Positions 7,435 to 37,372 of a stretch of 56,233 nt of DNA are shown here, in pieces. The first letter of the stretch is position 1, and every line of letters starts with the position of its first letter. The stretch spans positions 1 through 56,233 of the forward strand of contig JBDRDX010000047.1 in NCBI GenBank assembly GCA_043820285.1, in the 5' to 3' direction. A program made the position numbers and the translations under genes. The notes under the pieces are model-generated. The model saw only the letters and a program-made list of their open reading frames with translations, was not told the DNA's origin and made no database searches. The stretch comes from Patescibacteria group bacterium. Lineage in GTDB: Bacteria; Patescibacteriota; Gracilibacteria; UBA1369; JAHKBB01.

Positions 7435-7467
7435 GGCGCAAATTAGGACGTTGTCCCCTTTGCGCTG
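7435..7467 (-). repeat. hairpin repeat (variant C) overlapping the rplQ 3' end
   Basis: Minus strand CAGCGCAAAGGGGACAACGTCCTAATTTGCGCC; near-identical to 7837-7869. Confidence 0.85.
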
Positions 7468-7820
7468 TTAATTAATTCAATTTGTACCATCGGTGCGTTG
7501 TCTCCGGCTCTGGAACCCATGTTGTATGTCTTTGTGTATCCGGATGTTCTATCTTTATATCTTATAGCTAGGTCGTCAATTAACTTTTTTGAGCAGTCTT
7601 TATGTTGAACCAGTTTTTCAATCCGACGAATCGCATTCATTTTATCTTTTGTCTTTGCGATTGTGATCAACTTCTCAACAAACGGCTGAACCGCCTTTAC
7701 CCTTTTACTTGTAGTCTTTACCTTTTCATGGATTATAACTTGCATGGCAAGTGTTCTTAGAAGTGAAGTTCTGTGATCTTTGTCCGATCCTATTTTTATA
7801 ACTCTCTTTTGGTGTCTCAT
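7443..7820 (-). CDS. rplQ: 50S ribosomal protein bL17
   Basis: MRHQKR...HR..LLRTLA, VEKLITIAK, RYKDRTSGYT, RAGDNAPM. Confidence 0.97.
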   Translation of the reverse strand: MRHQKRVIKIGSDKDHRTSLLRTLAMQVIIHEKVKTTSKRVKAVQPFVEKLITIAKTKDKMNAIRRIEKLVQHKDCSKKLIDDLAIRYKDRTSGYTKTYNMGSRAGDNAPMVQIELINSAKGTTS

Positions 7821-7836
7821 AGTTTTTAGTAATTTA

Positions 7837-7869
7837 GGCGCAAATTAGGACGTTGTCCTCTTTGCGCTA
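7837..7869 (-). repeat. hairpin repeat (variant C) starting at the rpoA stop codon
   Basis: Minus strand TAGCGCAAAGAGGACAACGTCCTAATTTGCGCC; stems GCGCAAA/TTTGCGC and AGGAC/GTCCT. Confidence 0.85.
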
Positions 7870-8841
7870 TTCTTCAGATAGGGTTAGTCCTTTAGATTCC
7901 AGTGCGTTTGCAACTTCCGTGAGTGCTTTTTTACCAAATCCGCGCAAGTTTACAAGCTTACTTTCAGTGCATTTTGATAGTTGCTCGATAGATCCGATTC
8001 CTCCATTGATCAATGCGTTTAGTGTCCTTGGAGAGAATCCAAGGATTTCTATTGGAGTGTAAGCTTCTTGTGTTGGTTTCTTTGATTCTTCTTCTTGTTC
8101 TTTCTCAACAATTGAATCGAAGTCACTCATGAAGTCGCTTTCAACCATTACTTTTTCTTCGTTGAATAGTCCGAAGTATGATTGAAGTACGTTTGAAGCA
8201 AATTTCAATGTGTCTTCTGGAGAAATCGAACCGTCCGTCATGATTTCAAGCGTCAATTTATCCAGATTTGTCATTTCTCCGACACGAGTTGCCTCTACTT
8301 CGTATCTAACTTTCTTAACCGGCGAGAACACAGCGTTGATTGAAATTAGACTTGGGTCCGCTTCGTCTACCGGTTTGTGGTTTGCAGGGATAAATCCGAC
8401 TCCTTTTTCTGCAACCATTTCCATTTCAAACTTTGCTCCTTTCTCAAGTGTTGTGATGTATGCGTCCCTAGTCAAAATTTCTGTTCCCGTTGGACATTTG
8501 ATGTCCTTTGCATAAATTTTTCCCGGTTTCGCAACCGATAATGTTAGCTTTGAAGGTTCTTTAGTGTCTTTCTTTAGACTGATCTCTTTGAGGTTCAGGG
8601 TAATGTCCAGGACACTGTCTTTCACCCCTTTTACCGTGGAATATTCGTGGCTAACACCGCCTATCTTAACACCTGTTATGCATGCTCCCGGAAGAGATGA
8701 TAGCAGAACTCTTCTGAGAGCGTTTCCCAAGGTTAATCCATATCCTGTCGGCAGCGGACTCATTGTAAATACGTAGTGACTGTCTGATATCTTCTCAGTT
8801 TTGATTCTTGGGACACCTATTTCTTCTTGAATTTGATGCAT
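7867..8841 (-). CDS. rpoA: DNA-directed RNA polymerase subunit alpha
   Basis: GYGLTLGNALRRVLLSSLPG, HEYSTVKGVKD, FSPVKKV, alpha-CTD RTLNAL. Confidence 0.98.
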   Translation of the reverse strand: MHQIQEEIGVPRIKTEKISDSHYVFTMSPLPTGYGLTLGNALRRVLLSSLPGACITGVKIGGVSHEYSTVKGVKDSVLDITLNLKEISLKKDTKEPSKLTLSVAKPGKIYAKDIKCPTGTEILTRDAYITTLEKGAKFEMEMVAEKGVGFIPANHKPVDEADPSLISINAVFSPVKKVRYEVEATRVGEMTNLDKLTLEIMTDGSISPEDTLKFASNVLQSYFGLFNEEKVMVESDFMSDFDSIVEKEQEEESKKPTQEAYTPIEILGFSPRTLNALINGGIGSIEQLSKCTESKLVNLRGFGKKALTEVANALESKGLTLSEE

Positions 8842-8874
8842 GTTTTTAAATGGTTAGGTGTTTAGTTAATATTT

Positions 8875-9501
8875 TTATTTCGAATAGAATTCAACGATAA
8901 GTTGGCTTTCAATGCTTGAGTCAATATCGTCCTTGCCCGGCAGTTTTGTGACTTCCGCTTTCAGATTTGGGAGATCTACTTCAAGCCATTTTGGCGATGT
9001 GTCCTTTTTCTTCTTTAGCGGCTCAAACATTTTTGCGGATTTTGATTTCTCGACAACTTCAAATTTATCACCAACCTTTAATGTGATTGAAGGTACTGTA
9101 ACTTTTCTTCCGTTTAGTTTAACAAGTCCGTGACTGGCAAGCTGTCTTGCCATTGCTCTTGATTCTGCAAATCCTGCTCTGTACAGGACGTTGTCCAATC
9201 TTTCTTCAAGTAATTTCAGAAGTGCATCGCCTGTAATATCGTCCATTTTTTCGGCTCTTTCATAGTAAATATGGAATTGTTTTTCAGCGATGCCAAAGAT
9301 TCTTTTAGCTTTCTGTTTCTCTCTTAACTGTTTTGCGTATTCAGAAAGTTTTTTGAAAGATCTTTTTCCTCCGTGTGCTCCGGGAATGTAATTTTTTCTT
9401 ACCAGTGCGCATTTTTGTCCTTCACATCGTGCACCCTTAAGAAAGAGTTTTTCACCCTCTCTTCTGCATAGTCTGCAAACCGGTCCGGTATTTCTAGCCA
9501 T
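8875..9501 (-). CDS. rpsD: 30S ribosomal protein uS4
   Basis: MARNTGPVCRLCRREG.KLFLKG, QLREKQK, LEERLDNVLYR. Confidence 0.98.
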   Translation of the reverse strand: MARNTGPVCRLCRREGEKLFLKGARCEGQKCALVRKNYIPGAHGGKRSFKKLSEYAKQLREKQKAKRIFGIAEKQFHIYYERAEKMDDITGDALLKLLEERLDNVLYRAGFAESRAMARQLASHGLVKLNGRKVTVPSITLKVGDKFEVVEKSKSAKMFEPLKKKKDTSPKWLEVDLPNLKAEVTKLPGKDDIDSSIESQLIVEFYSK

Positions 9502-10008: not shown

Positions 10009-10027
10009 TTATTTGCTGATTATTTTT

Positions 10028-10063
10028 TCTTGATAGGGCACTACGCCTTTCGGCTCCGTGCTG
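10028..10063 (-). repeat. G.A-loop hairpin repeat (family I) just after the rpsM stop
   Basis: Minus strand CA-GCAC-GGA-GCC-GAAA-GGC-GTA-GTGC-CCTATCAAGA; compensatory GCAC/GTGC in place of consensus GCGC/GCGC. Confidence 0.8.
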
Positions 10064-10067
10064 CTGA

Positions 10068-10445
10068 TTATTTTTTAGGTGCGGCTTTCTTATTCGCAAT
10101 TGTTTTTTTCTTACCTTTTCTAGTTCTGGAGTTGTATCTTGTTCTCTGCCCGCGTGTTGGAAGACCCCTCCTGTGTCTAAATCCTCTGTATGAACCGATC
10201 TCCTGAAGTCTTTTAATATCCATTTGAACTTTTCTGCGAAGGTCTCCTTCCACCGGCATTTTCTCGATGTACTCGCGTAATTTCCCAACCTCTGTCTCTG
10301 TCAGATCTTTGATCTTTGTGTCCTTATTTAATCCAAGAGACCGGGTAATCTTCTCACTTGTGTTGCGGCCAATACCGTATATAGCAGTCAATGCCGCTTC
10401 CAGTCTCTTATCTTTTGGTAAGTTGATACCCGCTATTCTTGCCAT
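10068..10445 (-). CDS. rpsM: 30S ribosomal protein uS13
   Basis: [35 protein letters not shown]. Confidence 0.98.
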
Positions 10446-10982: not shown

Positions 10983-11729
10983 TTATTTAGTCAGAACTTC
11001 ACATCCATTCGGCGTTATTGCAACAGTATGTTCCACTTGAACTGCTACAGATCTGTCTCTGGTCACTATTGTCCACTTGTCATCCAGGGTTTCTATTTCA
11101 CCTTCACCCATCGCCATAATAGGTTCGATTGCAAAAGTCGTACCCACTTCCAGGATCGGGCCTTTATATGGGGTTTTGAAGTTGGGTACTTCCGGATCCT
11201 CGTGAAGAGTTTTGCCCACTCCATGCCCAATCAGGTCTTTTACTATGGAATATCCTGCGCCTTCCACGATTTCTTGGATTACTGTGCCTATTTCAACCAC
11301 ATGTATGCCTGGGCGGACTGTATCTATTGCTTTTTGAAGTGCTTTTTCGCAGGTTTCTATGAATTTGCTAATCCGGGGAGCAACATTTCCCACTTTTACG
11401 GTGATTGCCGAATCCGTTATTAAGCCTTTGCTTCGAACTCCCGCATCTATACTGATAATGTCTCCTTCCCGGAGAATCCTGTTTCCCGGAACGGAGTGTA
11501 CAACTTCTTCATTTACCGAGGTGCATATTGCGGCCGGATATCCTTGATATCCTTTGAAAGCCGCTTCAACTCCATATTTTTTGAATAATTTTTGAGCATA
11601 TTCTTCCAATTCGTATGTTTTTATTCCCGGAGTGATCTTTTCTTTCAATGAGTGCAAAATATCATGCAAAATCTTGCCGCCTTCTTTCATGATGGCTATT
11701 TCTTCCTCTGTTTTAAGGATGATACTCAT
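10983..11729 (-). CDS. map: methionine aminopeptidase type I
   Basis: CTSVNEEVVH, DAGV...TDSA, GHGVG..LHEDP, AIEP, QVEHTV. Confidence 0.97.
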   Translation of the reverse strand: MSIILKTEEEIAIMKEGGKILHDILHSLKEKITPGIKTYELEEYAQKLFKKYGVEAAFKGYQGYPAAICTSVNEEVVHSVPGNRILREGDIISIDAGVRSKGLITDSAITVKVGNVAPRISKFIETCEKALQKAIDTVRPGIHVVEIGTVIQEIVEGAGYSIVKDLIGHGVGKTLHEDPEVPNFKTPYKGPILEVGTTFAIEPIMAMGEGEIETLDDKWTIVTRDRSVAVQVEHTVAITPNGCEVLTK

Positions 11730-12358
11730 AGTCTCTCATCTAGGAATGTGAATACTTCTTCAGTGACTTTCTCGATTGGCTGTTCTCCGTTTACTTCAAT
11801 CATTTTTCCTTCTTCTTTGTATTTTTCGATTACCGGAACTGTTTCTGATGCATATGCCCGAAGTCTGGTCTTGATGCTTTCCGGATTGTCGTCTGTTCTC
11901 GTGATCAGTTTTCCTCCGCATTCGCAAGTGTCACTTCCATATGAGGCCGGGTACACGGTTTTGCATGTTTTGCAAAGCCTTCTTGTTGTGAGTCTTCGGA
12001 GAGCTTCTTCTTCTGAGATTTGGATTAATATTCCCGCAAATGGGCGTTCCAGGCGGTTTAGCAGTGCATCTAACGATTCTTTCTGTTCTATTTTTCTTGG
12101 AATTCCGTCGAAAAGTACGTTTTTCCCGGGTTCTATTTTGTTGGTGAAGTTTTCTACAATTTCCATTACGACGTCATTTGGAACTAGATTTCCCGCTTCA
12201 ATTATTTCTTTTACTTTTCTTCCAAGTTCAGAGTCTTCTCGTGAGAGTTTTCGGAGTTCCGCTCCGGTTTCGAATACTTCAAAGCCATATTTTTCTGCAA
12301 TGAATATTCCTTGCGTTCCTTTTCCGGAACCTTGGATGCCGAATAGTATTAGGTCCAT
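11726..12358 (-). CDS. adk: adenylate kinase (Zn-LID type)
   Basis: GIQGSGKGTQ P-loop, DGIPR, CKTC...CEC LID, RTDD. Confidence 0.96.
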   Translation of the reverse strand: MDLILFGIQGSGKGTQGIFIAEKYGFEVFETGAELRKLSREDSELGRKVKEIIEAGNLVPNDVVMEIVENFTNKIEPGKNVLFDGIPRKIEQKESLDALLNRLERPFAGILIQISEEEALRRLTTRRLCKTCKTVYPASYGSDTCECGGKLITRTDDNPESIKTRLRAYASETVPVIEKYKEEGKMIEVNGEQPIEKVTEEVFTFLDERL

Positions 12359-12413
12359 GGCGAATCGAGTTTATGAAATGTTCAACAGGAATTGTATTTG
12401 TAAAAAAATCATA

Positions 12414-13712
12414 TTAGTAGAACTTGCTGTAATCGTGCATCACAAGTTGAGCGTTTATTTGTCGCATGAGTTCCAGTACAACTCCGACAACGATGATCAT
12501 TCCGGCACCGCTTACGAGTAAGGGAACACTGCCTCCTTGAGTTCCTTGGAATGCGATACTTAGAAGAATTGGGGCGATTGCAACAAATGCCAGGAATGTG
12601 CCTCCAAAGAAATTCAGTCTGCTTGAAATGTGTCCAAGATATTCGGAAGTTTGTTTTCCCGGCCTGATTCCCGGAATGTATCCGCCTCTCTTTTGGATAT
12701 TGTCAGCTACCTGCTCCGGATTGAATGTGATCGAAACATAGAAGTATGTGAATCCAAAGATGAGTAGGAAGTATGTAAGTAGGTATAGCGGGCTGTATAT
12801 TTGGAATTGAGTTGTCAGGAAGTCTGCTATTGCTCTTGCCCATTTTGATGTTGCGTTTGCCATAAATTGTCCGGCGATTGATGGGAATGAAACGATAGAA
12901 ACGGCGAAGATAATTGGGATCATTCCCGCTTGGTTTATCCTCATTGGCAAAACTGACTGTTCGCTTCGCGCCTTCATTCCACGTCCGGCATATGTGATCG
13001 GGATTCGTCTGTTTCCTTCGGTTACAAGTACGATGAATACGGTCAATAGAACCGTAACAAGAAGCATTACTACGAATGGAATGATTTTCTCTACGTTTTG
13101 CTGTGCGAGGAATAAGCTTTGTCCGATAACTGTTGGGACTGCTGATACGATGCTCGCAAAGATCAAAAGCGAGATACCATTTCCAATTCCTTTTTCTGTG
13201 ATCAATTCGCCCAGCCACACCAAGAATATTGTACCTGTGGTAATTGTTAGCATGACCGGAAGAATCACAAGCGGATCCTGGATGTTTTCGAGAATTGGAA
13301 TTTGTGATTGTGATGAAAGAAGTACGATCATTCCGTATGATTGGATAAACGCGAGTGGCATTGTGAGCCAACGTGTGTATTTGTTGATTTGTCTTTTTCC
13401 TTGCTCACCTTCCTTTGAGAGACTTTCGAGTTTTGGAACTATCACTGTAAGAAGCTGCATGATGATCGATGCGTTGATGTATGGGGAAATACCCATGAGT
13501 ACGATCGAAAAATTATCTGCACTTCCACCCGTGAGTAGCGCAAATGCTCCAAGGATCTGGTTTTGATTGAAAATTGCTTTAAGTGCCTCGAGGTTTGCTC
13601 CCGGGATGCTGATTTGCACACAAATTCTGTAGATCAAAATAATTCCCAATGTGAATAGGATCTTTTTCCTTAGATCTTTTGAATTCCAAATTTGGAGTAA
13701 GTATTTGAACAT
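12414..13712 (-). CDS. secY: preprotein translocase subunit SecY
   Basis: MGISPYINASIIMQLL, GIGNGISLLIF, AGMIPIIFA, GGYIPGIRPG. Confidence 0.98.
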   Translation of the reverse strand: MFKYLLQIWNSKDLRKKILFTLGIILIYRICVQISIPGANLEALKAIFNQNQILGAFALLTGGSADNFSIVLMGISPYINASIIMQLLTVIVPKLESLSKEGEQGKRQINKYTRWLTMPLAFIQSYGMIVLLSSQSQIPILENIQDPLVILPVMLTITTGTIFLVWLGELITEKGIGNGISLLIFASIVSAVPTVIGQSLFLAQQNVEKIIPFVVMLLVTVLLTVFIVLVTEGNRRIPITYAGRGMKARSEQSVLPMRINQAGMIPIIFAVSIVSFPSIAGQFMANATSKWARAIADFLTTQFQIYSPLYLLTYFLLIFGFTYFYVSITFNPEQVADNIQKRGGYIPGIRPGKQTSEYLGHISSRLNFFGGTFLAFVAIAPILLSIAFQGTQGGSVPLLVSGAGMIIVVGVVLELMRQINAQLVMHDYSKFY

Positions 13713-14197: not shown

Positions 14198-14868
14198 TTC
14201 TTTTCGTTAGGCGCTTCGCTTCGCTCCGCGCTGGTCTTGACGGGAGTGCTTTGCTTCCCGTCGCTAGGGCGCTTCGCCTTCGGCTCCGCGCTGGTCTTGG
14301 CAGAAGCGCTATCGCTTTCTGCCGCTTTTGGCGCTTCGCTTCGCTCCGCGCTGTCCACTTTTTTCTTCGCCTTTTTCTTGAGCATCAACGGAGTTTCTTG
14401 CATTTGCATAAGCGCTTCATATGTGGCGTATGTGTTTCCGAGTTTGTTTGAGGTTCCAACCGACTTGCTCAAAATATTTTTAACTCCCGCCAGATCTAAA
14501 ATCTTTCTCACGGTTCCTCCAGCGATAAGACCTGTACCCGGTCCTGCCGGAAGAAGGATAAGTCTTGTACTCTTGTGTTTGATTTTCATCTCGTGTGGAA
14601 TTGTTCCTTCGTCCAAAATTACCTTTACGACGGTTTTCTTGGCTTGTGAAATGGCTTTTTGAATCGCGCCTGTAACCTCTGTGGATTTTCCAACACCGAT
14701 TCCGATCTTTCCTTTTCTATCACCAATTACAACGGTTGCTCTGAACCTTAGTCTTCGTCCACCTTTAACCACACGTGTTACACGTCTGATTTCTATGACT
14801 TCTTCGTCATATTCTTTTACCTCCTTTGGCACGTTTGATCTCTTTTGAAATGGTTTCTTTCCCATCAT
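14194..14868 (-). CDS. rpsE: 30S ribosomal protein uS5 with repeat-derived C-terminal extension
   Basis: RRVTRVVKGGRR.RF, PAGPGTGLIAGG; the tail SAERSEAP...SAERSEAP is encoded by hairpin repeats. Confidence 0.97.
   Translation of the reverse strand: MMGKKPFQKRSNVPKEVKEYDEEVIEIRRVTRVVKGGRRLRFRATVVIGDRKGKIGIGVGKSTEVTGAIQKAISQAKKTVVKVILDEGTIPHEMKIKHKSTRLILLPAGPGTGLIAGGTVRKILDLAGVKNILSKSVGTSNKLGNTYATYEALMQMQETPLMLKKKAKKKVDSAERSEAPKAAESDSASAKTSAEPKAKRPSDGKQSTPVKTSAERSEAPNEKK
14208..14353 (-). repeat. family I composite hairpin repeat (S-L-S-L-S) inside the rpsE coding sequence
   Basis: Three GCGC-GRA..GRA-GCGC units and two long hairpins (GGCAGAA/TTCTGCC and GACGGGA/TCCCGTC), read in frame. Confidence 0.9.
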
Positions 14869-14883: not shown

Positions 14884-15231
14884 TTAGAATTTCAATCCTC
14901 CCTCACGCGCACCTTCCGCGATTGCTCTGACGCGACCGTGATATTTGTATCCGCTTCTGTCGAATACACAAGTTCTGATTTTTTCTTTCTTTGCTTCTTC
15001 TGCGAGCTTTACTCCAACGCGCTTTGCCGAATCCAAGTTTCCGCCCTTTTCCTCTTTTATATCTGATACAGCTACTAATGTTTTCCCGGTTTCGTCGTCG
15101 ATAAGTTTTGCATAGTTTGCTTTCAAAGTTCTCTGTACGCATAGTCTTGGACGTACCGCTGTGCCGGAAATTTTAGCTCTAACGCGCCTTTTCCTATTAT
15201 CTCGTCCTAATTGTTTCTTATTTATTGTCAT
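14884..15231 (-). CDS. rplR: 50S ribosomal protein uL18
   Basis: RVRAKISGT..RPRL, VFDRSGYKYHGRV.A.AEGAREGGLKF. Confidence 0.98.
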   Translation of the reverse strand: MTINKKQLGRDNRKRRVRAKISGTAVRPRLCVQRTLKANYAKLIDDETGKTLVAVSDIKEEKGGNLDSAKRVGVKLAEEAKKEKIRTCVFDRSGYKYHGRVRAIAEGAREGGLKF

Positions 15232-15242
15232 AATTTTAATTA

Positions 15243-15803
15243 TTATCCTTCGCTACTGCTTGCAGCTGTTTTACCGGCTTTTCTTGCCACATATTCGCCT
15301 ACGTAGCGTATACCTTTTCCTTTGTATGGCTCCGGTGGTCTGTATGATCTTATTTTTGCCGCTACCTCTCCAACTGTTTGTTTGTTGATTCCGATTACTG
15401 TAAAGATATTTTTCTTATCTTTGCTTTGCTCTATCGTGATTCCTTCCGGAGCAGTATATTCGATAGGGTGTGAGAATCCCAGGTTTAGTGTAACTTTTCG
15501 TCCTGATGCATTTGCTTTGTATCCAACTCCTTGTATTTCAAGTTTCTTTTCGAATTCTTTTTCTACGCCTTGTGCCATGTTTGCGATAAGTGTTCTTGAG
15601 AGACCGTGTAAACTTTTGTCTTCTTTCGAATCGGATTGTCTCTCTGTCAGGATCTTTCCGTCTGCAATCGTAACTTTAATCTTTGGGTGAATCTTTGTTT
15701 TCAATTCACCTTTTGGTCCTTTTACAACTACCTCGTTATCTCCGCGTAGTTCTGCGGTTATTCCTGCTTTCAACTCGATTGGTAATTTGCCGATTCGTGA
15801 CAT
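15243..15803 (-). CDS. rplF: 50S ribosomal protein uL6
   Basis: MSRIGKLPI, VKGPKGEL, LGFSHP, RPPEPYKGKGIRY. Confidence 0.98.
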   Translation of the reverse strand: MSRIGKLPIELKAGITAELRGDNEVVVKGPKGELKTKIHPKIKVTIADGKILTERQSDSKEDKSLHGLSRTLIANMAQGVEKEFEKKLEIQGVGYKANASGRKVTLNLGFSHPIEYTAPEGITIEQSKDKKNIFTVIGINKQTVGEVAAKIRSYRPPEPYKGKGIRYVGEYVARKAGKTAASSSEG

Positions 15804-15812: not shown

Positions 15813-16196
15813 TTAGTACACTTCACAGATTAGTTCTCCTCCCAAATTTTGTTTCCTTGCTTCTTCTCCGGTCATAATCCCTTTAGGTGTGGACAGAATG
15901 TTTAGTCCAAGTCCGCTTCTTATACTTTTAAGCTCTTTTCTTTTAATGTAAATTCTTTGTCCTGTCTTACTAATTCTCTTCAAGTGGATACTTTTTTTAC
16001 CTTTTTTCAGATCTATCACAAGCTCATCAAACTTTCCGCTTTTTGCCTTTTGATAACTTTCGATGAATCCATTGTTTTTCAGCACAACCAAAATATTTTC
16101 TTTAATCTTAGAGTAGGGAACTCGTGTAAAGTCATGTCCCGCGCTCGTTGCGTTTCTGATTCTTGTTAATAAGTCTGCGATTGGGTCTGTATTCAT
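15813..16196 (-). CDS. rpsH: 30S ribosomal protein uS8
   Basis: DPIADLLTRIRNA, GLGLNILSTPKGIMT, GGELICEVY. Confidence 0.98.
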   Translation of the reverse strand: MNTDPIADLLTRIRNATSAGHDFTRVPYSKIKENILVVLKNNGFIESYQKAKSGKFDELVIDLKKGKKSIHLKRISKTGQRIYIKRKELKSIRSGLGLNILSTPKGIMTGEEARKQNLGGELICEVY

Positions 16197-16223
16197 TTTT
16201 TAGGTTCTTAGTTGTGATTAGTG

Positions 16224-16285
16224 TTGGCGCTCCGCTTCGCTTCGCGCTAGGTGCTCAGGTTGGCGCTCCGCTTCGCTTCGCGCTA
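16224..16285 (-). repeat. two family I S-units starting at the rpsN stop codon
   Basis: TAGCGCGAAGCGAAGCGGAGCGCCAA twice (16260-16285 and 16224-16249), separated by 10 nt. Confidence 0.9.
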
Positions 16286-16512: not shown

Positions 16513-16578
16513 GTTGTGGATTAATTTTTTCATTGTTCTCGCCTTCGGCTGCGGATTATTCAAAAATTAATCCACAAC
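16513..16578 (-). repeat. full-length family II element: 17-bp perfect inverted repeat with mini-ORF (16510-16533)
   Basis: GTTGTGGATTAATTTTT ... AAAAATTAATCCACAAC with a GCCGAAGGC apex on the minus strand. Confidence 0.85.
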
Positions 16579-17159: not shown

Positions 17160-17218
17160 TCTTGACGGGAGCGCTTTGCTTCCCGTCGCTAGGGCGCTAC
17201 GCCTTCGGCTTCGCGCTG
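17160..17218 (-). repeat. family I S+L repeat supplying the rplX C-terminus and stop
   Basis: Minus strand CAGCGCGAAGCCGAAGGCGTAGCGCCCTAGCGACGGGAAGCAAAGCGCTCCCGTCAAGA. Confidence 0.9.
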
Positions 17219-17894: not shown

Positions 17895-17899
17895 TTTAG

Positions 17900-17932
17900 G
17901 TTGTGAATTAGTTTCTCATTTGGTCCTCACCT
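17900..17932 (-). repeat. degenerate family II 5' motif upstream of rplN
   Basis: Minus strand AGGTGAGGACCAAATGAGAAACTAATTCACAAC; mini-ORF reduced to MRN*. Confidence 0.65.
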
Positions 17933-17942
17933 TTTTTTTTGG

Positions 17943-19990: not shown

Positions 19991-20013
19991 GGAGCGCTCC
20001 GCGCTTCGCGCTA
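19991..20013 (-). repeat. shortened family I S-unit starting at the rpsS stop
   Basis: Minus strand TAGCGC-GAA-GCGC-GGA-GCGCTCC (inner loop missing). Confidence 0.7.
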
Positions 20014-26000: not shown

Positions 26001-29000
26001 TGCCTTTTTTGTCGCAGACAAGAGTTCCGCTTTTGGCACATACTCCGACACCCACGCTGCAGGCGGCTCCTTTGTTTAGGCCTTCGTCAATTTGTCCGTC
26101 GCAGTCATTATCGATGTTGTCGCAAACTTCCGCTTTCGGCTCGCATACAACGCAAACGTTTCCTTCATCTTTTTGTCCATCGCAGTCATTGTCTATGTTG
26201 TCACATATTTCTTCTGTTGGCAGGCAGGCCGCGCATACATCGCCCTCATCAATAAATCCATCACAGTCGTTGTCCTTATTATCGCAAACTTCCGTACTTG
26301 GAGTACATACCGCGTCCGCGCATGCTCCGTCCGTACAGACGTTTGGACATTTGTACCATTGGGTATGGACATATGTTGTTGAATATTTGGTGCTGCAATG
26401 TGTTTCCGCTATCCACGGTCCACTTTTCTTGTCTTTGTCTCCCGCTCTTTCTCCGCATGAATCCCAATATGCGCCGACTATATATGTCCCTTCTTTTGGC
26501 CCGTATGCATTGCCTTTAACTTTGTAATCCAATCCTCCATCTGAGTCTGTGCAAACGGTTTCTTCTTTACAATCTGAATCCGCTGTATCTGCTTTCCCGT
26601 CACAGTCGTCATCAATCTCATTGTCACAAATTTCATTTGATGGAGTTCCTTCCACTGCGGGGCAAGCCGCTCCTGTCCCTGCGTCGTTGCATATGTATGT
26701 TGAAGTTGATTTGCAGGCTCCGGTTCCGACCGTGCACGATTTCCCTAATTGGAAATCTTCATCCACTAGATTGTCGCAATCGTTATCCATACCATCGCAG
26801 ACTTCTGTTGAAGGTGTGCAGACCGCCTGACAGCCCTCATTTACTTGGCCATCACAGTTGTCATCTATGGAATTGTTGCAAACTTCGCTCGCGCCCGGAT
26901 TTACGTTCGCGTTTGTGTCATTGCAATCCGGTGCCTGGTTTCCCGTCCATATACATGTCGCGCGATTGTCTCCCGTGTATCCGTCTGCGTCCGGGTCCGT
27001 GCAGGCTGGGGGTGGGATTACAGGTGCTTCTCTATATATTTCGGTTGAGTCTGTGTCGTATGCGGAATATCCGGAAGTGTTGTAGCCTCGTGTTCTATAT
27101 TGGTACGTAGTCCCCGCTTGGGGATATGTGGAAGGATTTGTTGTTGGGTTGTCGGTAAATGTTACGGTATTTGCCGCTACCGATCCGATTTCAGTCCAGT
27201 TATTCCATCCCGCTCCTTCGTTTGTTCTGCGTTCGATTTTGTAGCTGTCTTCTGTAGTTGAATTATCTGTCCAAGTCATAGTTGTTTCTGTATCGGATAC
27301 GGCCGCGGCTAAAGTGTCAGACGGAGTTGCCGGTACGTCCTGCATTGTAAATGTTCCTGAACTTGGCCAGTCTCCTTCCGCGTCATCGTCGTCCCAGAAT
27401 TTTATTCTCCAATAATATGTTACGGCGCCATCGTCCAGACTTAGATTTAATGTTGGTGCAGTACCAAAACTTCCATACGTGAGGTCTGCTATTCTATTTC
27501 CCGCCGTGCAGTTTGTTATTGAAGTTTTGGCGCTGTCCCAATGCGTTATGGACGCGAATGTGTTATCCGTGCTGACTTGGATTCTCGCGTTATTAATGAT
27601 GTCTCCCGCGTCCGCGTCGTTGCAGAGCGCTGAGAACGCAGGTGTTGCATCGGTTAGGTTTGTTGGGTTTGTGTCTCCGGCTTGGGCCGTTGAGTTGTTT
27701 GCGTACAACGTGCCTGCGGTGGGGGATGAGTTGTCGAGAGTTACTAATTTACTTCCCGCGCTTCCGTTTTCCGGGCCGGTTCCACCGGTGACTGTAATGC
27801 TGCTATCCGTGAATGAGCTTGAGGTGCTGTATACGAAGTACGCACCGCCTCCGCCTCCTCCACCTCCAGGCAATACCGCTCCGCCACCATTATTTCCGCC
27901 TGTAGCGGTGATACTGTTTGGTGTTCCCGCATATGCGGCTGCAAAGAAATTAATTCCTCCTCCCGATCCGCCGCCGCCTCCTTGATTGCTGGATCCCGCG
28001 GTTCCGTTTGCTCCATCAGCGGTGATATCTCCGTTTATCGTGACTGTCCCTGTGGATGTCAATTTTATATATCCACCCCCGGCTCCTCCTGTTGCGTTTT
28101 CTCCTGCGCCACCACCGCCTGATCCCATGCCCAATGAATCCAAGCTTGTTAATGTGCAAGTACCGCTTCCTCCGGCGCCTGCCGCTCCTTCATCACCTGT
28201 TCCTCCGGCTCCGCAGTATCCGCCGCCGCCGCCGCCGCCGGCATTTCCTATTCCGGCGCCCGTTCCATTTCCATCCGCGCTTTGTGCGCCTCCGTCGAGC
28301 CCTTTGCCGTCTACATTTATAGATCCGCCGGAAGCTATAGTTGCATCTCCAACGGAGATATTTACTATATGTGATTGAGCGGTGCTGTTGTCTCCGTGAG
28401 TTAATGTTCCTCCATTGTTGACTATGAGGCTGTTTAGAGAGAGTGCGTTTGAAGTTGTGAAGTTTCTCATATCCAAGGTTCCGCTTGAACCGATTACCAG
28501 TGGTATATTACCTAAATTTGTCCACGTTGAACCCTGATAAAACGCCAATGTGGCTGAACTGATTTCCGGAGTCGCTGTTGTTGTCAGCGTACCTCCGTTT
28601 ATTTTCAAGGTTCCTGTTCCATCAGAGGATTGTACCAGAGCATTGGTATTGTCTAACGTTAATGTCTTGCCTGTTGAAACCGTATATATGGCGTTACCAT
28701 TTAATGATATTGCGGCTGGGTCCAAAGAGATTGCGACTTGAGGTGTTTCGGCTCCCGTTATCCCGTTATTGTGTGCGCATATTTGGTTTTGATCCACGAC
28801 GTATGCCAGACCGGACCCTCCGGATTCGGCTCCTATTCCGCCACGTGTTAAGGGATCCATTGAACACGCAAATTGATTTGTCCCTCCCGAAGACACATAT
28901 ATGCAGCCGCCGCCGCCGCCGCCACCGGAATCCATACCGCCAGCTCCTCCATAGGCGAGAGGTGTTACCGTCCCCAAAATTCCACCGGATCCGACGGAGA

Positions 29001-32000
29001 GTTTTATTGTGCCTCCGGCTCCTCCTCCGGATCCGTATGCGGTTCCGGCGACTCCGGCCCATCCACTTGCCTGTATGGAACCATTCATTATTAATGTTGT
29101 ATTTGCTGATAGTGATATATAGCCGCCGCCGTCTCCTCCCGCGGCGAACCCGTCAGCACCGGCGCCTCCGGCGCCCATTCCCGTTGGGCTTGTTGCATCA
29201 TTGTATCCTGTTCCTCCGGCTCCAGCTGATCCGCCGCCTCCGCTTCCGCAGTTAGCGCCACCTCCCCCTCCCCCGGCGGCGTTTGCCAGTCCGTATGCTC
29301 CTGCCGGGCCTTCACCGTTATTACTTCCCGCGGCGCCTCCGGCGTATCCTTTACCGTCCGTATTGACAGCTCCCATCATCTGAATTTCGATCATATCCGC
29401 TGAAAAGTCCACTTCATACGCCTGAGTGGTCGTATTGTCTGTGTGGGTCAGCGTTCCGTCGCTTTTGACCGTCAATGTTCCGGTGATCGTTTGGGTGTTT
29501 GCGTTCTTTTGTTCCAAGGTTGAGCGGTTTTCGATGATGATGTTGCGGCCGGCCGTTATATTGTTTGCAAGTTGCAGGGTGGCCGCATATGTGCCGGCGC
29601 TGTCGCCGATCACCAGTGTGTTAAATGAAATATCCGCACTTGTCGTGACAGTTATGTTTGCATCGATTACTACATCGTCCGAGCTTGTCGGAACTGCGTC
29701 TGTGTTCCAGTTCGCGGCTGTGTTCCAGGATCCGTCTCCGCCGCCGCCGTCCCAAGTTGTGTAGGTTAGTGATTTTTTGCTGTATATAAGGGAGTACTCT
29801 GAAAATCCTATATGATGAAGTATATTGTCTCCGCTTATGGCCATTGAACTTTGAGGCCATGTATTATTTTGAGAGATGGTATTGACTGTGCTTTCTTGCG
29901 CCCAAGTTGATGCTCCGGTTTTTTTTGCGACAAAGACTCCATCATACGATTCGTCCACTCCACTGATAAATATATTCCCGTACGCGTCCGCGCTGATTTG
30001 CGGAGAGTTTAGGTTTGGCCAAACCCCTATTGTGATATCAGAAGTTACAAAACTTCCACTTCTATTTGTTGCGTACGATATGTCTCCATCCGCAAATTCT
30101 ATTGAGTATGCCAGATGTATGTATCCGTTTGAGTCTATCAATATGGAGTTATGTTCGCCCAGGAGGTCGGTTCCTGTTTCTATAGTTTGGATGTCCCATG
30201 TTGAGCCGTTGAAGCCGGCGTATTTTAGCGCTTTGTTTGTATTATCGTGATAAGACACATGCGGATAATATGGTGATGAGCCTGCGGTAACTATATCCAG
30301 TGTCCGAGAACCCAGACTGCCGTTGTCTATCGTACTCACCGCCCAGCTTCCTAGCCAGCTGTCATATTTGGCGTATTTGATATTTGAAGTTGATGGATCC
30401 AAGAAAACCACGTGCATATTTCCGCCGTTGTCTATTGTGGACGCCAGTACCGTTCTGGACGATAAGCTTGTTATATTTTCGGTTGTCCATCCGCCGCTGT
30501 CGTACGCATGGACCAGGTAGCTTCCGGACTTGTAAAAGAAATGTATGGAATTATTCGTTGGATTTATTGATATATCCATATAGGGATATACATACCCTAC
30601 GTTGCTCGCTATGGTTTCTTCCTGCCAGATTCCTCCCGAGAGGTAAAAGTGTTTTAGATCGTAGGTTCCATCGGTGGAAATCATCGCTCCTATATGCGGA
30701 TTATTTGATGAATCCATTGCGATTTTCGGACGCGAATTGTCTGCCGATCTATACGTTCCGGATATACCTTCGGATTGCGACGCCCATGATCCTCCTACGT
30801 ATTTGTATCTGTTTGTGCTTCCGTATGCTCCGTTGATGAAATTTAGTACATTTGAATTATCCGGTTTTACCTCCCAGGGGTACTGAAGGCAGACGCCGCC
30901 CACTTCTGCTCTGGCTGACCAGGTGACGTCCTTTATTGTGTAGCGGGTGCACACAACTCCTGAAGGAGTGTACAAAATCATAGGTTTGCCGTCTGTGAAT
31001 TCCAGGCCCAGATTATTTAGATACATACCACTTGACCCGTCATCCGGGACTGCCGTTTCTATACCCCATGAAGATCCGTTCCAGGACGCGTATTTAATGG
31101 TTGAGGCGTCATACCCGTATGCTATGTGCGGGTTGCTTGATCCGTCTATTCTTATACTTACTGCAACGGGCCCGTAGCTTGCGGGACCCGAATCAACCAT
31201 TTCCGTTGTCCAGGTGCCGCTTTTATAAGCTCTTTTTACCCCGGATTTGTAGTACGCGATGTGAGGCGTTGTTACCACTATATCTATTTTCGGCGCTACT
31301 TCGCCCGATACGATCGCTTCCGCTGTTTCTGTAGTCCATGCCCCGTCATAGTATCCGTATTTCAAATCTCCATTGTCTAAATATGCGATGTGGTAATTAT
31401 CACTGCTGTCTATTTCCAAATCTATATTTGATTTCCTGTCATAGTAGGTTGTTTCGTGGGTCGGGAGAGTGGCATTGGCGATTTCCGTGTATGTCCAGGT
31501 GCTGCCGCTCCGTACCGCCGCTTTGATTTTGCTGGCTCCTCTGTCGTAATACACTATGACTACCTTTCCACTGCTGTCCAGCTCCATCGCGATTCCCGCT
31601 TCCGAGGTTCCGGGAAGGTCATGGTAATGGAAATTTGTTCCATCATAGTACGCGTGCTGAAATTTTGCCAACTCCGGTATTTGATAAACAACGTGATAGT
31701 TGCCGCTGGAATCAAACGCGAAGTCCAAGTATTGAAACATATTTATAATGGGGTCCTCTATAAAATCCTGCCGCCATACGCCGGCCATATTTGTGGGAGG
31801 GGACAGCGGCCCCGAGACACTGTTGTTTTTGTATGCGATAACCCGATACACGTAACCGGACGAGAAGCTTGTGTCGCTGTATGAAGTTGTGTTCGCCGCC
31901 AACGTTGTTAAATTGGTCCAATCATATGGATGTTCTCCATATGTACTCGCGTTTACTCCTCTTTGGACCAGGAATCCGTCTTCGATTGATGAGTTGTCCG

Positions 32001-32862
32001 TCCAGGTTAAGTCTGCCTGGGTGCCCGAGCTGAAAGTTACTGACAGATTCGTGGGTCTGCTCGGAGCCGTATATATCGGCGTCGCGTCCGTTGAATAGGC
32101 GGAATTCCCACTGGCGTTTACGGCTCGCGCTCGGTATTCATAATAGTTATCCGCCGCTATTGAGCTAGTGTCATAATATGAAGTTACGTTTGCCGCGGTT
32201 GTTGTAAGAAGTGTCCAAGATCCACCGTTGGCTTTTCTGTCTATTTCGAATCCTGTCTCTGATGAAGAATTGTCTGTCCACGTGACAAGCAGTTCCGTGT
32301 CTGAACCGTACCCGCCGTCTCCGTTGGTTGGAGCGGGTGGGACGTCTGATAATGTAAATGTAGCCGACTCTGCTGACCAGGCTCCCTCCGTAAGTTCATC
32401 ATCCCAGAATTTTATTCTCCAATAGTATGTCACTGCTCCGTCTTCCAGGCTTAAGTTTAGTGTTGGAGCTGTTCCGAAACTCCCATAAACTATGTCCGCA
32501 CTTCTATTTCCGGCTATACAATTTGCAATCACAGTCCCTGCCGCTCCACTGTCCCAATGTGTAACGGACGCGAATGTGGCATCCGTACTTACTTGGATTT
32601 GCGCTTTGTTTAATATGTCTCCCACATCCGGGTCATTGCATAGAGCAGAGAATGCAGGAGTTGTGTCTGTTAAATTTGTTGGATTTGCGATGCCCGCTTG
32701 TGCCGTAGTTGTGCTGTCGTTGGAGTAGAGGGTTGTTGGGGAGGTGGGGGCGAGAGCTCGTGCTATTGGGAGAGGCGGTATGCCTCCAAGAATCAACAAA
32801 GCCATAAGAAAAACACTTATAGCTTTGCTTTTGTTCAGTATATTTAAACGCTTTTTGCTCAC
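23056..32862 (-). CDS. giant (3268 aa) secreted, membrane-anchored surface protein/adhesin
   Basis: N-terminal signal peptide; FN3-like WTDNS..E.GF domains; propeller-like repeats (DS.G.PHIAY); Gly-rich GGGGG repeats; Cys/Asp EVCDGxDNDCDG repeats (MopE-like); DTDGDG Ca-binding repeats; Ig-like segments; C-terminal TM helix with basic tail. Confidence 0.88.
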   Translation of the reverse strand: MSKKRLNILNKSKAISVFLMALLILGGIPPLPIARALAPTSPTTLYSNDSTTTAQAGIANPTNLTDTTPAFSALCNDPDVGDILNKAQIQVSTDATFASVTHWDSGAAGTVIANCIAGNRSADIVYGSFGTAPTLNLSLEDGAVTYYWRIKFWDDELTEGAWSAESATFTLSDVPPAPTNGDGGYGSDTELLVTWTDNSSSETGFEIDRKANGGSWTLLTTTAANVTSYYDTSSIAADNYYEYRARAVNASGNSAYSTDATPIYTAPSRPTNLSVTFSSGTQADLTWTDNSSIEDGFLVQRGVNASTYGEHPYDWTNLTTLAANTTSYSDTSFSSGYVYRVIAYKNNSVSGPLSPPTNMAGVWRQDFIEDPIINMFQYLDFAFDSSGNYHVVYQIPELAKFQHAYYDGTNFHYHDLPGTSEAGIAMELDSSGKVVIVYYDRGASKIKAAVRSGSTWTYTEIANATLPTHETTYYDRKSNIDLEIDSSDNYHIAYLDNGDLKYGYYDGAWTTETAEAIVSGEVAPKIDIVVTTPHIAYYKSGVKRAYKSGTWTTEMVDSGPASYGPVAVSIRIDGSSNPHIAYGYDASTIKYASWNGSSWGIETAVPDDGSSGMYLNNLGLEFTDGKPMILYTPSGVVCTRYTIKDVTWSARAEVGGVCLQYPWEVKPDNSNVLNFINGAYGSTNRYKYVGGSWASQSEGISGTYRSADNSRPKIAMDSSNNPHIGAMISTDGTYDLKHFYLSGGIWQEETIASNVGYVYPYMDISINPTNNSIHFFYKSGSYLVHAYDSGGWTTENITSLSSRTVLASTIDNGGNMHVVFLDPSTSNIKYAKYDSWLGSWAVSTIDNGSLGSRTLDIVTAGSSPYYPHVSYHDNTNKALKYAGFNGSTWDIQTIETGTDLLGEHNSILIDSNGYIHLAYSIEFADGDISYATNRSGSFVTSDITIGVWPNLNSPQISADAYGNIFISGVDESYDGVFVAKKTGASTWAQESTVNTISQNNTWPQSSMAISGDNILHHIGFSEYSLIYSKKSLTYTTWDGGGGDGSWNTAANWNTDAVPTSSDDVVIDANITVTTSADISFNTLVIGDSAGTYAATLQLANNITAGRNIIIENRSTLEQKNANTQTITGTLTVKSDGTLTHTDNTTTQAYEVDFSADMIEIQMMGAVNTDGKGYAGGAAGSNNGEGPAGAYGLANAAGGGGGGANCGSGGGGSAGAGGTGYNDATSPTGMGAGGAGADGFAAGGDGGGYISLSANTTLIMNGSIQASGWAGVAGTAYGSGGGAGGTIKLSVGSGGILGTVTPLAYGGAGGMDSGGGGGGGCIYVSSGGTNQFACSMDPLTRGGIGAESGGSGLAYVVDQNQICAHNNGITGAETPQVAISLDPAAISLNGNAIYTVSTGKTLTLDNTNALVQSSDGTGTLKINGGTLTTTATPEISSATLAFYQGSTWTNLGNIPLVIGSSGTLDMRNFTTSNALSLNSLIVNNGGTLTHGDNSTAQSHIVNISVGDATIASGGSINVDGKGLDGGAQSADGNGTGAGIGNAGGGGGGGYCGAGGTGDEGAAGAGGSGTCTLTSLDSLGMGSGGGGAGENATGGAGGGYIKLTSTGTVTINGDITADGANGTAGSSNQGGGGGSGGGINFFAAAYAGTPNSITATGGNNGGGAVLPGGGGGGGGAYFVYSTSSSFTDSSITVTGGTGPENGSAGSKLVTLDNSSPTAGTLYANNSTAQAGDTNPTNLTDATPAFSALCNDADAGDIINNARIQVSTDNTFASITHWDSAKTSITNCTAGNRIADLTYGSFGTAPTLNLSLDDGAVTYYWRIKFWDDDDAEGDWPSSGTFTMQDVPATPSDTLAAAVSDTETTMTWTDNSTTEDSYKIERRTNEGAGWNNWTEIGSVAANTVTFTDNPTTNPSTYPQAGTTYQYRTRGYNTSGYSAYDTDSTEIYREAPVIPPPACTDPDADGYTGDNRATCIWTGNQAPDCNDTNANVNPGASEVCNNSIDDNCDGQVNEGCQAVCTPSTEVCDGMDNDCDNLVDEDFQLGKSCTVGTGACKSTSTYICNDAGTGAACPAVEGTPSNEICDNEIDDDCDGKADTADSDCKEETVCTDSDGGLDYKVKGNAYGPKEGTYIVGAYWDSCGERAGDKDKKSGPWIAETHCSTKYSTTYVHTQWYKCPNVCTDGACADAVCTPSTEVCDNKDNDCDGFIDEGDVCAACLPTEEICDNIDNDCDGQKDEGNVCVVCEPKAEVCDNIDNDCDGQIDEGLNKGAACSVGVGVCAKSGTLVCDKKGSAICSVTPSSGSTEVCDSLDNDCDGETDEGLDCSCTPGETIPCGIDTGECKAGLQTCGSNSKWGQCVGRINAAREICDGKDNDCDGETDEGFALGQACSAGLGVCSTSGTITCSKNGASTACNATPKTGSAEVCDNLDNDCDGKVDEELDCTCRPGATQNCGIDTGECSFGTQTCGGNSQWGACAGGTGSSAEICDGKDNDCDGKIDEELDCACKSGDVQKCGSNIGECSEGVQACRNNKEWSTCIGNTAPTSEICDGKDNDCDGQTDEGNVCTVVCVPNCSGAEGVCVGNTFGNTCGGVCEGTKTTDECATDPECTPSCSQAPNVCSGKQFANGCGGTCVGTKGCDDDDDNNNVIQIITSPINTDVDDDTGKLLSKLLKPKELKQFLTRIEIITALVNELKLEKLKKQVIAACNQNKIECLKIYMPKDKASKKITESLSASRPEVFTDIPVTDQYYAITMKAIELGVMPNNTKMGYAFDPSEPSTIEETLEMIVRALEMGSAEEACKYGIANCEEDLSEYVTRKKLDEIIINTLAYIKAWDLEDKFNRDTDKDGLTDIMEKIVYGTDPNNKDTDGDGLTDYHEVITHKTSPLRKDTDKEGLDDYEEVEKYKTNPLKADTDGDTFTDKQEVHAGTDPLNPYDFPTDNDGNNVSDEWEKFFDIEVGNGMQDTDGEGLVDRLEYTYNTNPLNPDTDGDGFTDAEEVFDCGTDPTKYNETCGTGVEITNLQDGQTIADNTPLVKGTAKYNLPVQILVRNTFGHQKILGEVKADENNTFIFETADSLQDGEYIFIAQEINLKEKQIRQSKPVTILIDTTLGVQAPNVMKLGGKRVPKGVIEGKRKVFLRNLLPPLEGTTDMGSQVISVWRSVVSTSSLIADTQAGYFAIKPPHPLEPGKHEVIVYSIKEDNKVMSESLRIEFEIEEGSTIITDRYKLAAKKEAQTGYTAQKAMSELFSYILIGLAVLVTARFLLYERRHKRKKKA

Positions 32863-36744: not shown

Positions 36745-36784
36745 ATTTTTTTAATATTTAAAGTATAAGAAAATAGCCGAAGGC

Positions 36785-36812
36785 ATTATACATAAGGATA
36801 TTGAATTTGCAA
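36785..36812 (-). promoter_or_regulatory. putative promoter for fusA
   Basis: Minus strand TTGCAA-16nt-TATAAT. Confidence 0.55.
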
Positions 36813-36819
36813 TCCGGAA

Positions 36820-37275
36820 TTAAAACTTCGCATAATGGGCGAAGGCTTTGTTTGCAGCCGCCATTCTGTGAGTGTCTTCTTTCTTCTTTATTGCTGATCC
36901 TTGTTCGTTTGCCGCATCTAAAAGTTCTTGAGCCAATCTTTGTGCCATTTTAGACCCCTTTTTGTCTCTTGCCGCCCCTAGGATCCATCTGAAGGAGAGC
37001 ATTAGTTGACGGCCGTATTTAACCTCGATAGGTATTTGGTAAACAGATCCGCCAATTCTTTTTGGGCGGACTTCCATTGTAGGTTTTACGTTCCCGATTG
37101 CTTTTTCGAAGACATCTTCGGGGTTTTTATTTCCTTTCTCCGCAATTGTTCGCAAAGTGTCACGCCAAATCTTTCTGGCAATAGACTTTTTCCCGTCAAG
37201 CATGAGGTAGTTTATGAACTTTTCTTGTAGTTCAGTTGAATCTTCCGGTACGAATTTTGCTCTCTTTTTTGCCAT
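36820..37275 (-). CDS. rpsG: 30S ribosomal protein uS7
   Basis: FINYLMLDGKKSIA, RIGGSVYQIP, KKKEDTHRMAAANKAFAH. Confidence 0.98.
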   Translation of the reverse strand: MAKKRAKFVPEDSTELQEKFINYLMLDGKKSIARKIWRDTLRTIAEKGNKNPEDVFEKAIGNVKPTMEVRPKRIGGSVYQIPIEVKYGRQLMLSFRWILGAARDKKGSKMAQRLAQELLDAANEQGSAIKKKEDTHRMAAANKAFAHYAKF

Positions 37276-37291
37276 TAAAGTTATCTTAGTT

Positions 37292-37372
37292 TCTTGACAG
37301 GAGCGCTATCGCTTCCTGTCGCTTGGCGCTCCGCTTCGCTACGCGCTTGGCGCTCCGCTTCGCTACGCGCTA
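37292..37372 (-). repeat. family I S-S-L repeat starting at the rpsL stop
   Basis: Minus strand T-(AGCGCGTAGCGAAGCGGAGCGCCA)x2 then AGC-GACAGGAAGCGATAGCGCTCCTGTCAAGA. Confidence 0.9.

Follow-up and report, generated by a model that had tools for sequence, protein, structure and literature searches.

The 56,233-nucleotide contig JBDRDX010000047.1 of a Patescibacteria group bacterium (assembly GCA_043820285.1), hereafter the window, carries short GC-rich hairpin elements at the 3' ends of 11 genes in its ribosomal-protein (r-protein) cluster. The copies arise by insertion or duplication, lie in the sense orientation and are located at or directly past stop codons or inside disordered protein termini. 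We propose that they probably form a lineage-specific, non-autonomous family of small palindromic repeats, which behaves like repetitive extragenic palindromic (REP) sequences, bacterial interspersed mosaic elements (BIMEs) and Rickettsia palindromic elements (RPEs) and stands outside those families. The window is one entire contig (C47) of the genome under study (G000), a 1.07-Mb assembly of 66 contigs that is 97.9% complete.

Three hairpin types, S, T and Q, can be distinguished in G000. An initial annotation made from the sequence alone had described one family at 11 genes, with a common orientation and a YAGCGC start (CAGCAC after rpsM). Inspection of the sequence bore out all 11 coordinates, the sense (minus-strand) orientation and the start motif. 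All matches in the window fall at these loci. The E-values below refer to R1, a covariance model built from 20 copies (alignment A1).

7435-7467, minus strand: rplQ (L17), Q hairpin, minimum free energy (MFE) -14.7, z -4.0; the open reading frame (ORF) enters it for 25 nt and stops at a TAA inside.
7837-7869, minus strand: rpoA, Q hairpin, z -5.0; the rpoA stop is its TAG.
10028-10063, minus strand: rpsM (S13), S unit with a GCAC/GTGC compensatory outer stem and a T remnant (..TCAAGA), 4 nt past the stop; E-value 1.2e-3.
14208-14353, minus strand: rpsE (S5), S-T-S-T-S within the ORF, encoding the S5 C-terminal tail; units S 14330-14353, T 14295-14327, S 14268-14293, T 14235-14266 and S 14210-14233.
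16224-16285, minus strand: rpsN (S14), two S units (16262-16285 and 16226-16249); the rpsN stop is the TAG of the first unit.
17160-17218, minus strand: rplX (L24), S 17193-17218 and T 17160-17191; the ORF stops on a TAG located in the 3' internal loop of S.
17943-18001, minus strand: rpsQ (S17), S-T, sharing 98% identity with the rplX copy; the S 3' loop provides the TAG that ends the ORF.
19991-20013, minus strand: rpsS (S19), degenerate S without a significant fold, E-value 0.043; the rpsS stop is its TAG.
20303-20371, minus strand: rplB (L2), S frame with an enlarged apex (20338-20371) and T (20303-20335), z -3.6; the rplB stop is its TAG.
21236-21446, minus strand: rplW (L23), seven S units head-to-tail and an S/T fusion (21236-21265); the first unit's GTAA loop contains the TAA that stops the ORF.
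37292-37372, minus strand: rpsL (S12), S 37349-37372, S 37325-37348 and T 37292-37324, z -3.1; the rpsL stop is its TAG.

In the S unit (21-24 nt), a GCGC stem of 4 bp leads through a 3x3 purine loop (GNA/GNA) to an apex of GCGAAGC, GCGTAAGC or GCCGAA(A)GGC. Its 21-nt core pattern matches the window eight times and none of 100 shuffles. The T module (about 33 nt) is a 10-bp hairpin in which a bulged A separates a 7-bp stem from a 3-bp stem with its loop; CAAGA follows the hairpin. T ends most composites, closing those at rpsE (twice), rplX, rpsQ, rplB and rpsL, and is present in a fused form at rplW. Q, likewise about 33 nt, is a distinct hairpin at rplQ and rpoA that R1 missed and that shares with S just the YAGCGC...GCGCC frame. 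The idea of a single S-type family at all 11 loci thus stands as far as this frame goes and does not extend to these two genes. A third Q copy, with a compensatory outer stem, lies on contig C17 between a PKD-domain gene and rpmE. All of these hairpins are predicted by folding, as is the ability of tandem S units to pair with one another as long rods. The apex of S and T corresponds exactly to the GCGNAGC / GCGNNAGC mini-hairpin motif, in the forms GCGAAGC, GCGTAAGC and GCCGAAGGC. Passages of PMC13037366 describe GCGNAGC and CCGAAGG DNA mini-hairpins as unusually stable and known from phage and plasmid priming sites and N4 promoters, and mention the use of GCGNAGC mini-hairpins for protecting mRNA 3' ends.

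Pairing in S is kept at 100%, and the GCAC/GTGC change in the rpsM copy, already reported as compensatory, was confirmed as the single such change in S. The T module covaries. Within G000, compensatory changes affect 3 of its 10 pairs, 92.5% of cells are paired (slid controls do not exceed 50%), and none of 500 shuffles reached the covariation score. The composites have also been copied as blocks: the 59-nt S-T block is 98.3% and 96.6% identical across rplX, rpsQ and rpsE, and the T of rplB is 97% identical to that of rpsE and 92% identical to the copy in the L19 gene. TRF delineates arrays at rplW (period 27, 7.7 copies), rpsE (period 60, 2.4 copies) and rpsL (period 24, 2.2 copies); the rplW copy number is provisional, since it comes from a short-read assembly and independent contigs are broken at these repeats.

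In 10 of the 11 host ORFs the stop codon or the final residues come from the element, the sole exception being S13, whose own stop is 4 nt upstream. As first annotated, its TAG is the stop of rpoA, rpsN, rpsS, rplB and rpsL, and every one of the seven TAG stops that the cluster's r-protein and rpoA genes use is part of an element. L24 and S17 gain SAKPKA and SAEPKA, respectively, before the TAG in the S 3' loop. The S5 ORF crosses 160 nt of repeat (three S and two T units), giving a 52-residue tail that ends at an ATGA overlap with rplO. The Y of the tag is T in 6/7 in-frame copies versus 0/9 others in G000 (P=9e-4, hand tabulation). Because T is confined to in-frame tags, this pattern points to selection for an immediate stop following insertion. 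The suggestion that YAG is the target of insertion was not borne out, as YAG belongs to the element and TAG is seen just when tag and host ORF share a frame. We rejected TAG as a recoding signal because it serves as an ordinary stop in G000 (216 of 866 long ORFs).

The S5 proteins of this clade (P0003-P0011, P0016 and P0042-P0044) have C-terminal tails of 40-55 K/A/P/E-rich residues ending in ..P(N/Q)KK, and judging from these homologues such a tail is ancestral in the clade. In one of them, P0010 (62% identity), the tail begins with ARSEAKRQ, the other-frame product expected of an S unit, and may represent a candidate S unit at the protein level. At rpsM, a 15-nt direct repeat (about 10014-10028 and 10062-10076) flanks the element and includes the rpsM stop; it is the sole such case among 16 loci.

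Covariance modelling had been recommended in the initial annotation. At E<=1, R1 returned 22 S matches in the genome, 19 of them in the window and the others within the genes for L19, S1 and a TraC-like protein, and a strict S regular expression returned 19 and 17, respectively, those in the window all on the minus strand. In total, about 18 loci in G000 carry 22 copies of S, 10 of T and 3 of Q, all of them direct. Those outside the window are likewise in sense orientation and include the following.

L19 gene, sense: S-T inside the C-terminal tail.
S1 gene, sense: S-T inside the C-terminal tail.
TraC-like gene, sense: two S-like units at the N-terminus.
DnaK gene, sense: a degenerate S that provides the last residues.
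459-aa membrane ORF, sense: an S frame with another apex at its TAG stop.
Contig C43, sense: a T-like hairpin in a 5' region.

The random scatter that would have spoken against the proposed link to gene ends did not occur; the distribution is far from random, with a strong r-protein bias. Twelve of the roughly 18 loci have r-protein hosts, and RpoA and DnaK account for two more. In the window, an element follows 11 of 30 r-protein and rpoA genes and none of about 28 other genes (P=3e-4, hand counts). Enrichment tests on 15 loci, which predate three further ones, show that 11 lie within 2.8% of the genome (P=1e-14) and that 12 have r-protein hosts (P=9e-14, assuming 52 r-protein genes among 941 ORFs). 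GC skew in G000 tracks gene strand.

A match to a described family did not occur either. Searches against Rfam 15 gave no match in the window at the gathering score, none at E<=1 in positions 7000-38000 and none at the hairpins of relatives. Literature searches turned up no account of this family. The main text of PMC3733652 does not contain GCGAAGC; its supplementary REP sequence and in-ORF lists might contain a similar family. A 2026 preprint on intergenic features describes a different, uS2-linked RNA.

Relatives were surveyed in 150 other genomes of the order, none of which belongs to the family of G000, and in 150 genomes elsewhere in the phylum. R1 detected single S units in two genomes of the order, one in G025, where it sits in frame at a membrane protein's N-terminus, and one in G055, where it is intergenic. 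R2, a model of T, matched 18 of the 150 genomes of the order at E<=0.01 and 17 at E<=1e-3, concentrated in two families (6/8 and 5/9 genomes), compared with 3/150 elsewhere in the phylum. These T-like relatives share a conserved apex (GGAAGCGAAGCGMTCC), often have A-rich tails and have outer stems that are free to vary; of the 43 matches with E<1e-3, 33 are full-length and 27 of these carry the YAG tag. An order-wide alignment, which was fitted to the model (46 rows, 41 distinct, 20 genomes), shows compensatory changes at 6 of 12 pairs (51 cells) and a score that 0 of 500 shuffles reached, with 85% of cells paired versus 31-48% in slid controls. At 13 of the 43 matches a sense ORF of at least 80 aa ends at 0 (TAG), -3 (TAA or TAG before the tag) or -8 nt, versus 0/43 in the antisense control. 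The T-like hosts in relatives are IspDF, a DUF3352 protein, HU, PriA, an H+-pyrophosphatase, V-ATPase subunit C, SecY, a decarboxylase and a PilB-type ATPase. In G080 (loci L135, L136 and L137) all three T-like copies lie directly after tRNA genes, 2 nt past the CCA end.

The HU gene, found in 144 of 151 genomes, provided a comparison of filled and empty sites. Among the 30 best HU loci, a family hairpin follows the stop in two (G040 and G086, of one genus); most others, G000 included, have a canonical hairpin and U-tract after the gene. In this genus the site is filled in G040 and G086 and empty in G013 and G068. G040 and G013 share the downstream terminator and the next gene, with a stop-to-terminator distance of 99 nt versus 24 nt between conserved flanks, and the 99 nt of G040 open with the tag and hairpin immediately after the HU stop. 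In G150, from another family, a separate copy with another stem occupies this position. On comparison of these loci, the difference is an insertion-type polymorphism and G150 an independent fill. The best metagenome match to L23 is 57% identical, with no S unit found by R1 in the 38 loci, and the best match to S5 is 77% identical. A search with the repeat-encoded peptide returned, among 36 candidates, only the S5 of G000 itself, which is weak evidence.

We therefore regard the elements as probably being a small palindromic repeat family whose design consists of a 5' YAG tag, a stem free in sequence with pairing kept, a purine-rich internal loop, a GCGAAGC-type apex and an A-rich or CAAGA tail. 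S and T, as derived modules, together with the Q variant, would have multiplied as the composite blocks and tandem arrays now seen through the str/S10/spc/alpha cluster. The insertions would have replaced the original stops, with a C-to-T change in the tag giving TAG when in frame, and would have lengthened L17, L24, S17, L23 and S5. For published REPs, the main text of PMC3733652 describes termini that give TAG stops, copies at ORF termini and downstream of genes, and transcription as RNA hairpins, and passages of PMC12306157 report down-regulated translation where a REP lies less than 16 nt from a stop. By analogy with this behaviour, the copies described here can be taken as 3'-end hairpins of cistrons: transcribed with the host gene, each would fold into a stable hairpin that most plausibly blocks 3'-to-5' exonucleases and must be melted by the terminating ribosome. 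The proposal of a REP-like element at the ends of highly expressed genes thus holds in terms of behaviour (composite copies at unrelated loci, the HU polymorphism, in-ORF copies and the r-protein bias) and fails on the GTAG tag, the transposase, the inverted dimers and a number of loci as low as about 18.

Several observations weigh against this interpretation. Besides the low locus number, covariation in S is weak, with one compensatory cell. The summed MFE as RNA shows no strand asymmetry (sense -346.9, antisense -345.1), and counts of G.U versus A.C do not discriminate between action as RNA and as single-stranded DNA. Orientation is confounded in part, since all genes at the 11 window loci are co-oriented and these loci are not independent in this respect. 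No mobilising agent could be found among those searched for. G000 has no match to Y1/RAYT (PF01797), for which a control search succeeds in 6 of 14 genomes, and none to OrfB_IS605 (PF01385). Y1 genes are present in 40 of the 150 other genomes of the order without enrichment in hairpin-positive ones (4/18 versus 36/132), and no S or T lies near the 10 best of them (best E-value 0.39). Target-site duplications are absent at 15 of 16 loci, the exception being rpsM. Lastly, no close relative was found, and there are no empty sites to set beside the r-protein junctions.

A search for a RAYT or TnpA-Y1 gene flanked by the repeats had been proposed in the initial annotation. Such a gene was found neither in G000 nor at the 10 best Y1 genes of the order, and we dropped the RAYT/IS200 link in view of the missing gene, the lack of enrichment and the unflanked Y1 genes. 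G025 and G055, the two genomes with a single S unit, each have a strong Y1 gene. Searches of two transposase families did not reveal a parent insertion sequence (IS). A reverse-transcriptase (RT) route was also rejected, as the single RT of G000 belongs to a diversity-generating retroelement (DGR) and inspection of a 3-kb locus showed no hairpin of the family. This DGR lies on contig C46 (locus L211: 365-486, 772-893 and 1282-2370). A 122-nt variable repeat at an ORF 3' end matches the template repeat upstream of the RT, and 20 of their 21 mismatches fall at template adenines.

The best surviving alternative, which we nevertheless consider unlikely, is that the hairpins are selected cis-regulatory RNAs. 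As operators or as processing signals, possibly bound by a single shared factor, they would coordinate r-protein cistrons at the level of stability, processing or termination-reinitiation. The conserved apex and covarying stem across the order, the strictly sense orientation at exact stop distances and the enrichment in the most highly expressed genes are all consistent with such a role. So are the absence from the window of any r-protein leader known to Rfam (in 7000-38000 even at E<=1), a second repeat (U5) at the 5' side of five cistrons, and the private palindromic repeats found at the same type of junction in other relatives (4 of 21 loci). However, an element is present at just 11 of about 30 r-protein junctions with no evident logic, the hosts in relatives are unrelated (IspDF, PriA, PilB-type ATPase), the HU site is polymorphic within one genus and some copies lie inside coding tails. 

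U5 is a repeat family of 97-100% identity that occurs only in this contig (9502-9545, 10451-10482, 16513-16548, 19531-19563 and about 17895-17942, minus strand). It lies directly upstream of rpsD, rpsM, rpsN and rpsC, with a degenerate copy before rplN, and contains a CCGAAGG-type mini-hairpin, GAGGA and an ATG mini-ORF (MKKLIHN..), which at rpsD and rpsN runs up to or overlaps the genuine start. In front of rpsN, an inverted copy of the U5 3' half (16562-16578) could enclose a Shine-Dalgarno-like site. Among the related loci of at least 5 kb, private palindromic repeats are present in 4 of 21. In the metagenome contig L091 (48% L23 identity), 85-113-nt palindromic repeats of at least four private families (90-96% identical, z -2.5 to -5.3) fill r-protein junctions up to the next ATG, for example at 11626-11745, 15162-15280, 12320-12425 and 16121-16230.

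A stop-codon-seeking element, whose copying is coupled to gene expression instead of a conventional transposase, is a speculative and rather doubtful extension. It would account for sense landing at +0/+3 nt from the stops of highly expressed genes (r-proteins, HU in two families independently and S5 in a second lineage) and at tRNA 3' ends, for the element's own stop-capable tag and for hosts without a cognate Y1 enzyme. If true, it would imply a new form of target choice via transcript 3' ends or terminating ribosomes; alternatively, the hairpins would have been domesticated as a common 3'-end control of r-protein cistrons in a lineage without classical r-protein leaders.

It is very unlikely that the repeats act at the DNA level, as single-stranded hairpins or cruciforms built on GCGNAGC that serve replication priming, supercoil relief or nucleoid-protein binding in a heavily transcribed region. 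The stability of GCGNAGC and CCGAAGG DNA mini-hairpins described in passages of PMC13037366 would suit this explanation, folding with DNA parameters is slightly better for the sense strand (-191.5 versus -179.9 for antisense), and the same 22-mer caps unrelated palindromes in many phyla. The exact register with stops and frames, with TAG only where the tag is in frame, would be unexpected of such elements, as would placement after tRNA 3' ends. The exact 22-nt S core was found in 54 stretches (Acidobacteriota, Micromonospora, Microbacterium, Holophagales, Polyangia, Anaerolineae and others), where it mostly caps larger lineage-specific palindromes and forms 33-nt tandem arrays in two Polyangia contigs. 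By a rough hand estimate a few matches are expected by chance, and there is no Rfam family for these palindromes.

That the elements are clade-specific intrinsic terminators or attenuators is largely refuted. They are hairpins at gene 3' ends, and directly follow tRNA genes at all G080 copies; however, most lack a U-tract, having A-rich tails, and lie between co-transcribed r-protein cistrons. The order, and G000 after HU, use a canonical hairpin and U-tract, and the G040 element sits between the stop and such a terminator. The filled and empty HU sites beside a shared terminator therefore rule this explanation out.

Selection of the repeats as encoders of useful disordered tails is just as implausible, since copies are untranslated or read in more than one frame, which marks a nucleotide-level element and not a protein module: S5, L19 and S1 share one Ser-Ala frame through S-T and the clade S5 tail is ancestrally K/A/P/E-rich, but the TraC-like protein and L23 use other frames and most copies are untranslated or add 0 to 7 residues. 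An assembly artefact, the other form of this dismissal, can hardly be reconciled with contigs from two independent studies that break at the same repeat positions and with the canonical gene order.

The genomic setting is otherwise conventional. Genes from about 3 kb to 56 kb of the window lie on the minus strand and include a str/S10/spc/alpha cluster in canonical order. Family searches support L17, RpoA, S4, S11, S13, L15, S5, S14, L24, S17, S19, L2, L23, S12, S7, S10, L3, L4, L22, L5, S3, L14, S8, SecY, EF-Tu, RpoC, L13, S9 and TrmD, with NCBIfam matches for all 11 host genes (L17, RpoA, S13, S5, S14, L24, S17, S19, L2, L23 and S12). L16, L29, L6, L18, Adk, Map, IF-1 and EF-G are named from gene position alone, and no L30 gene was found. 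The closest named homologues come from metagenome-assembled genomes of Candidatus Peregrinibacteria and Patescibacteria, and the same DNA is present in groundwater metagenomes from several studies; taken as a whole, the setting is in keeping with a CPR bacterium. Contigs from an RNA run are identical to several cluster genes, so the cluster is represented in an RNA library; these contigs cover neither transcript ends nor repeats. Between rpsJ and rplC, within the otherwise canonical S10 cluster, lies a 3268-aa ORF (23056-32862, minus strand) with MopE metal-binding, bacterial TSP3 and fn3 repeats. Because of these repeats we rejected the idea that it is an N4-like RNA polymerase using hairpin promoters.

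To our knowledge, r-protein operons normally exclude mobile or repeated DNA. Here a Patescibacteria-type genome of about 1 Mb concentrates its only sizeable repeat family in them, with the stop codons of ten essential genes rewritten and a 52-residue tail gained by S5. The family adds an order-wide structured motif outside Rfam, defined by its YAG tag, a stem that covaries and an apex conserved as GCGAAGC. It makes testable how REP-like hairpins could be copied without a RAYT, why landing falls exactly on stops, and whether stop-proximal hairpins tune polycistronic r-protein mRNAs where classical autogenous leaders are lacking. In practical terms, the repeats break short-read contigs inside a block of phylogenomic marker genes and create spurious or extended ORFs.

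Among known systems, bacterial MITEs (miniature transposable elements with inverted repeats; Correia/NEMIS, RUP and ERIC) are similarly non-autonomous and co-transcribed with their neighbours, with hairpins that alter mRNA fate, as would also be the case here. MITEs are 70-300 bp long, with terminal inverted repeats matching an IS and with target duplications. In the present family no matching IS was found and a flanking repeat is seen at 1 of 16 loci. Intrinsic terminators differ in that the elements here have A-rich tails, occur within operons and coexist with canonical terminators elsewhere. The GCGNAGC / GCGNNAGC mini-hairpin, in passages of PMC13037366, is a structural motif and not a genetic element, its stability having been measured mainly on DNA. 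REPs close to a stop, which stall ribosomes during termination (Liang, Rudd and Deutscher 2015, as cited in passages of PMC12306157), compare with a distance here of 0 to 4 nt. The hosts here are, however, essential and highly expressed, and down-regulation by trans-translation would be costly.

The Rickettsia RPEs resemble the family in that they, too, are palindromic repeats, belong to a reduced genome and are tolerated in frame within functional genes, here S5, L19, S1, TraC-like and DnaK. By description they are set apart: RPEs are 100-150 bp long and spread over many gene classes (PMC3733652, in part), whereas here 21-33-nt modular units lie at the extreme 3' end or in disordered tails. 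The closest likeness is to REP/BIME sequences of the GTAG and CGTC superfamilies, whose length range of 20-40 bp includes S, T and Q. As the main text of Di Nocera et al. 2013 (PMC3733652) describes them, these palindromes are short and imperfect, bear a conserved tag at one end and form mosaic clusters, mostly downstream of ORFs and co-transcribed, with the TAG of the tag often forming the stop and some copies in ORF termini; CGTC REPs are likewise without a transposase. In contrast, the tag here is YAG with a variable preceding base (GTAG at 1 of 11 window loci, rpsN; CGTC in 3 of 8 T arms). No RAYT accompanies the copies, which number in the tens instead of hundreds and are all head-to-tail, without inverted dimers (REPINs). 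They have purine-rich internal loops and a GCGAAGC apex, and are nearly confined to r-protein genes in G000. The family thus falls outside REP, BIME and RPE membership on tag, transposase, copy number and dimer form, though it works like them.

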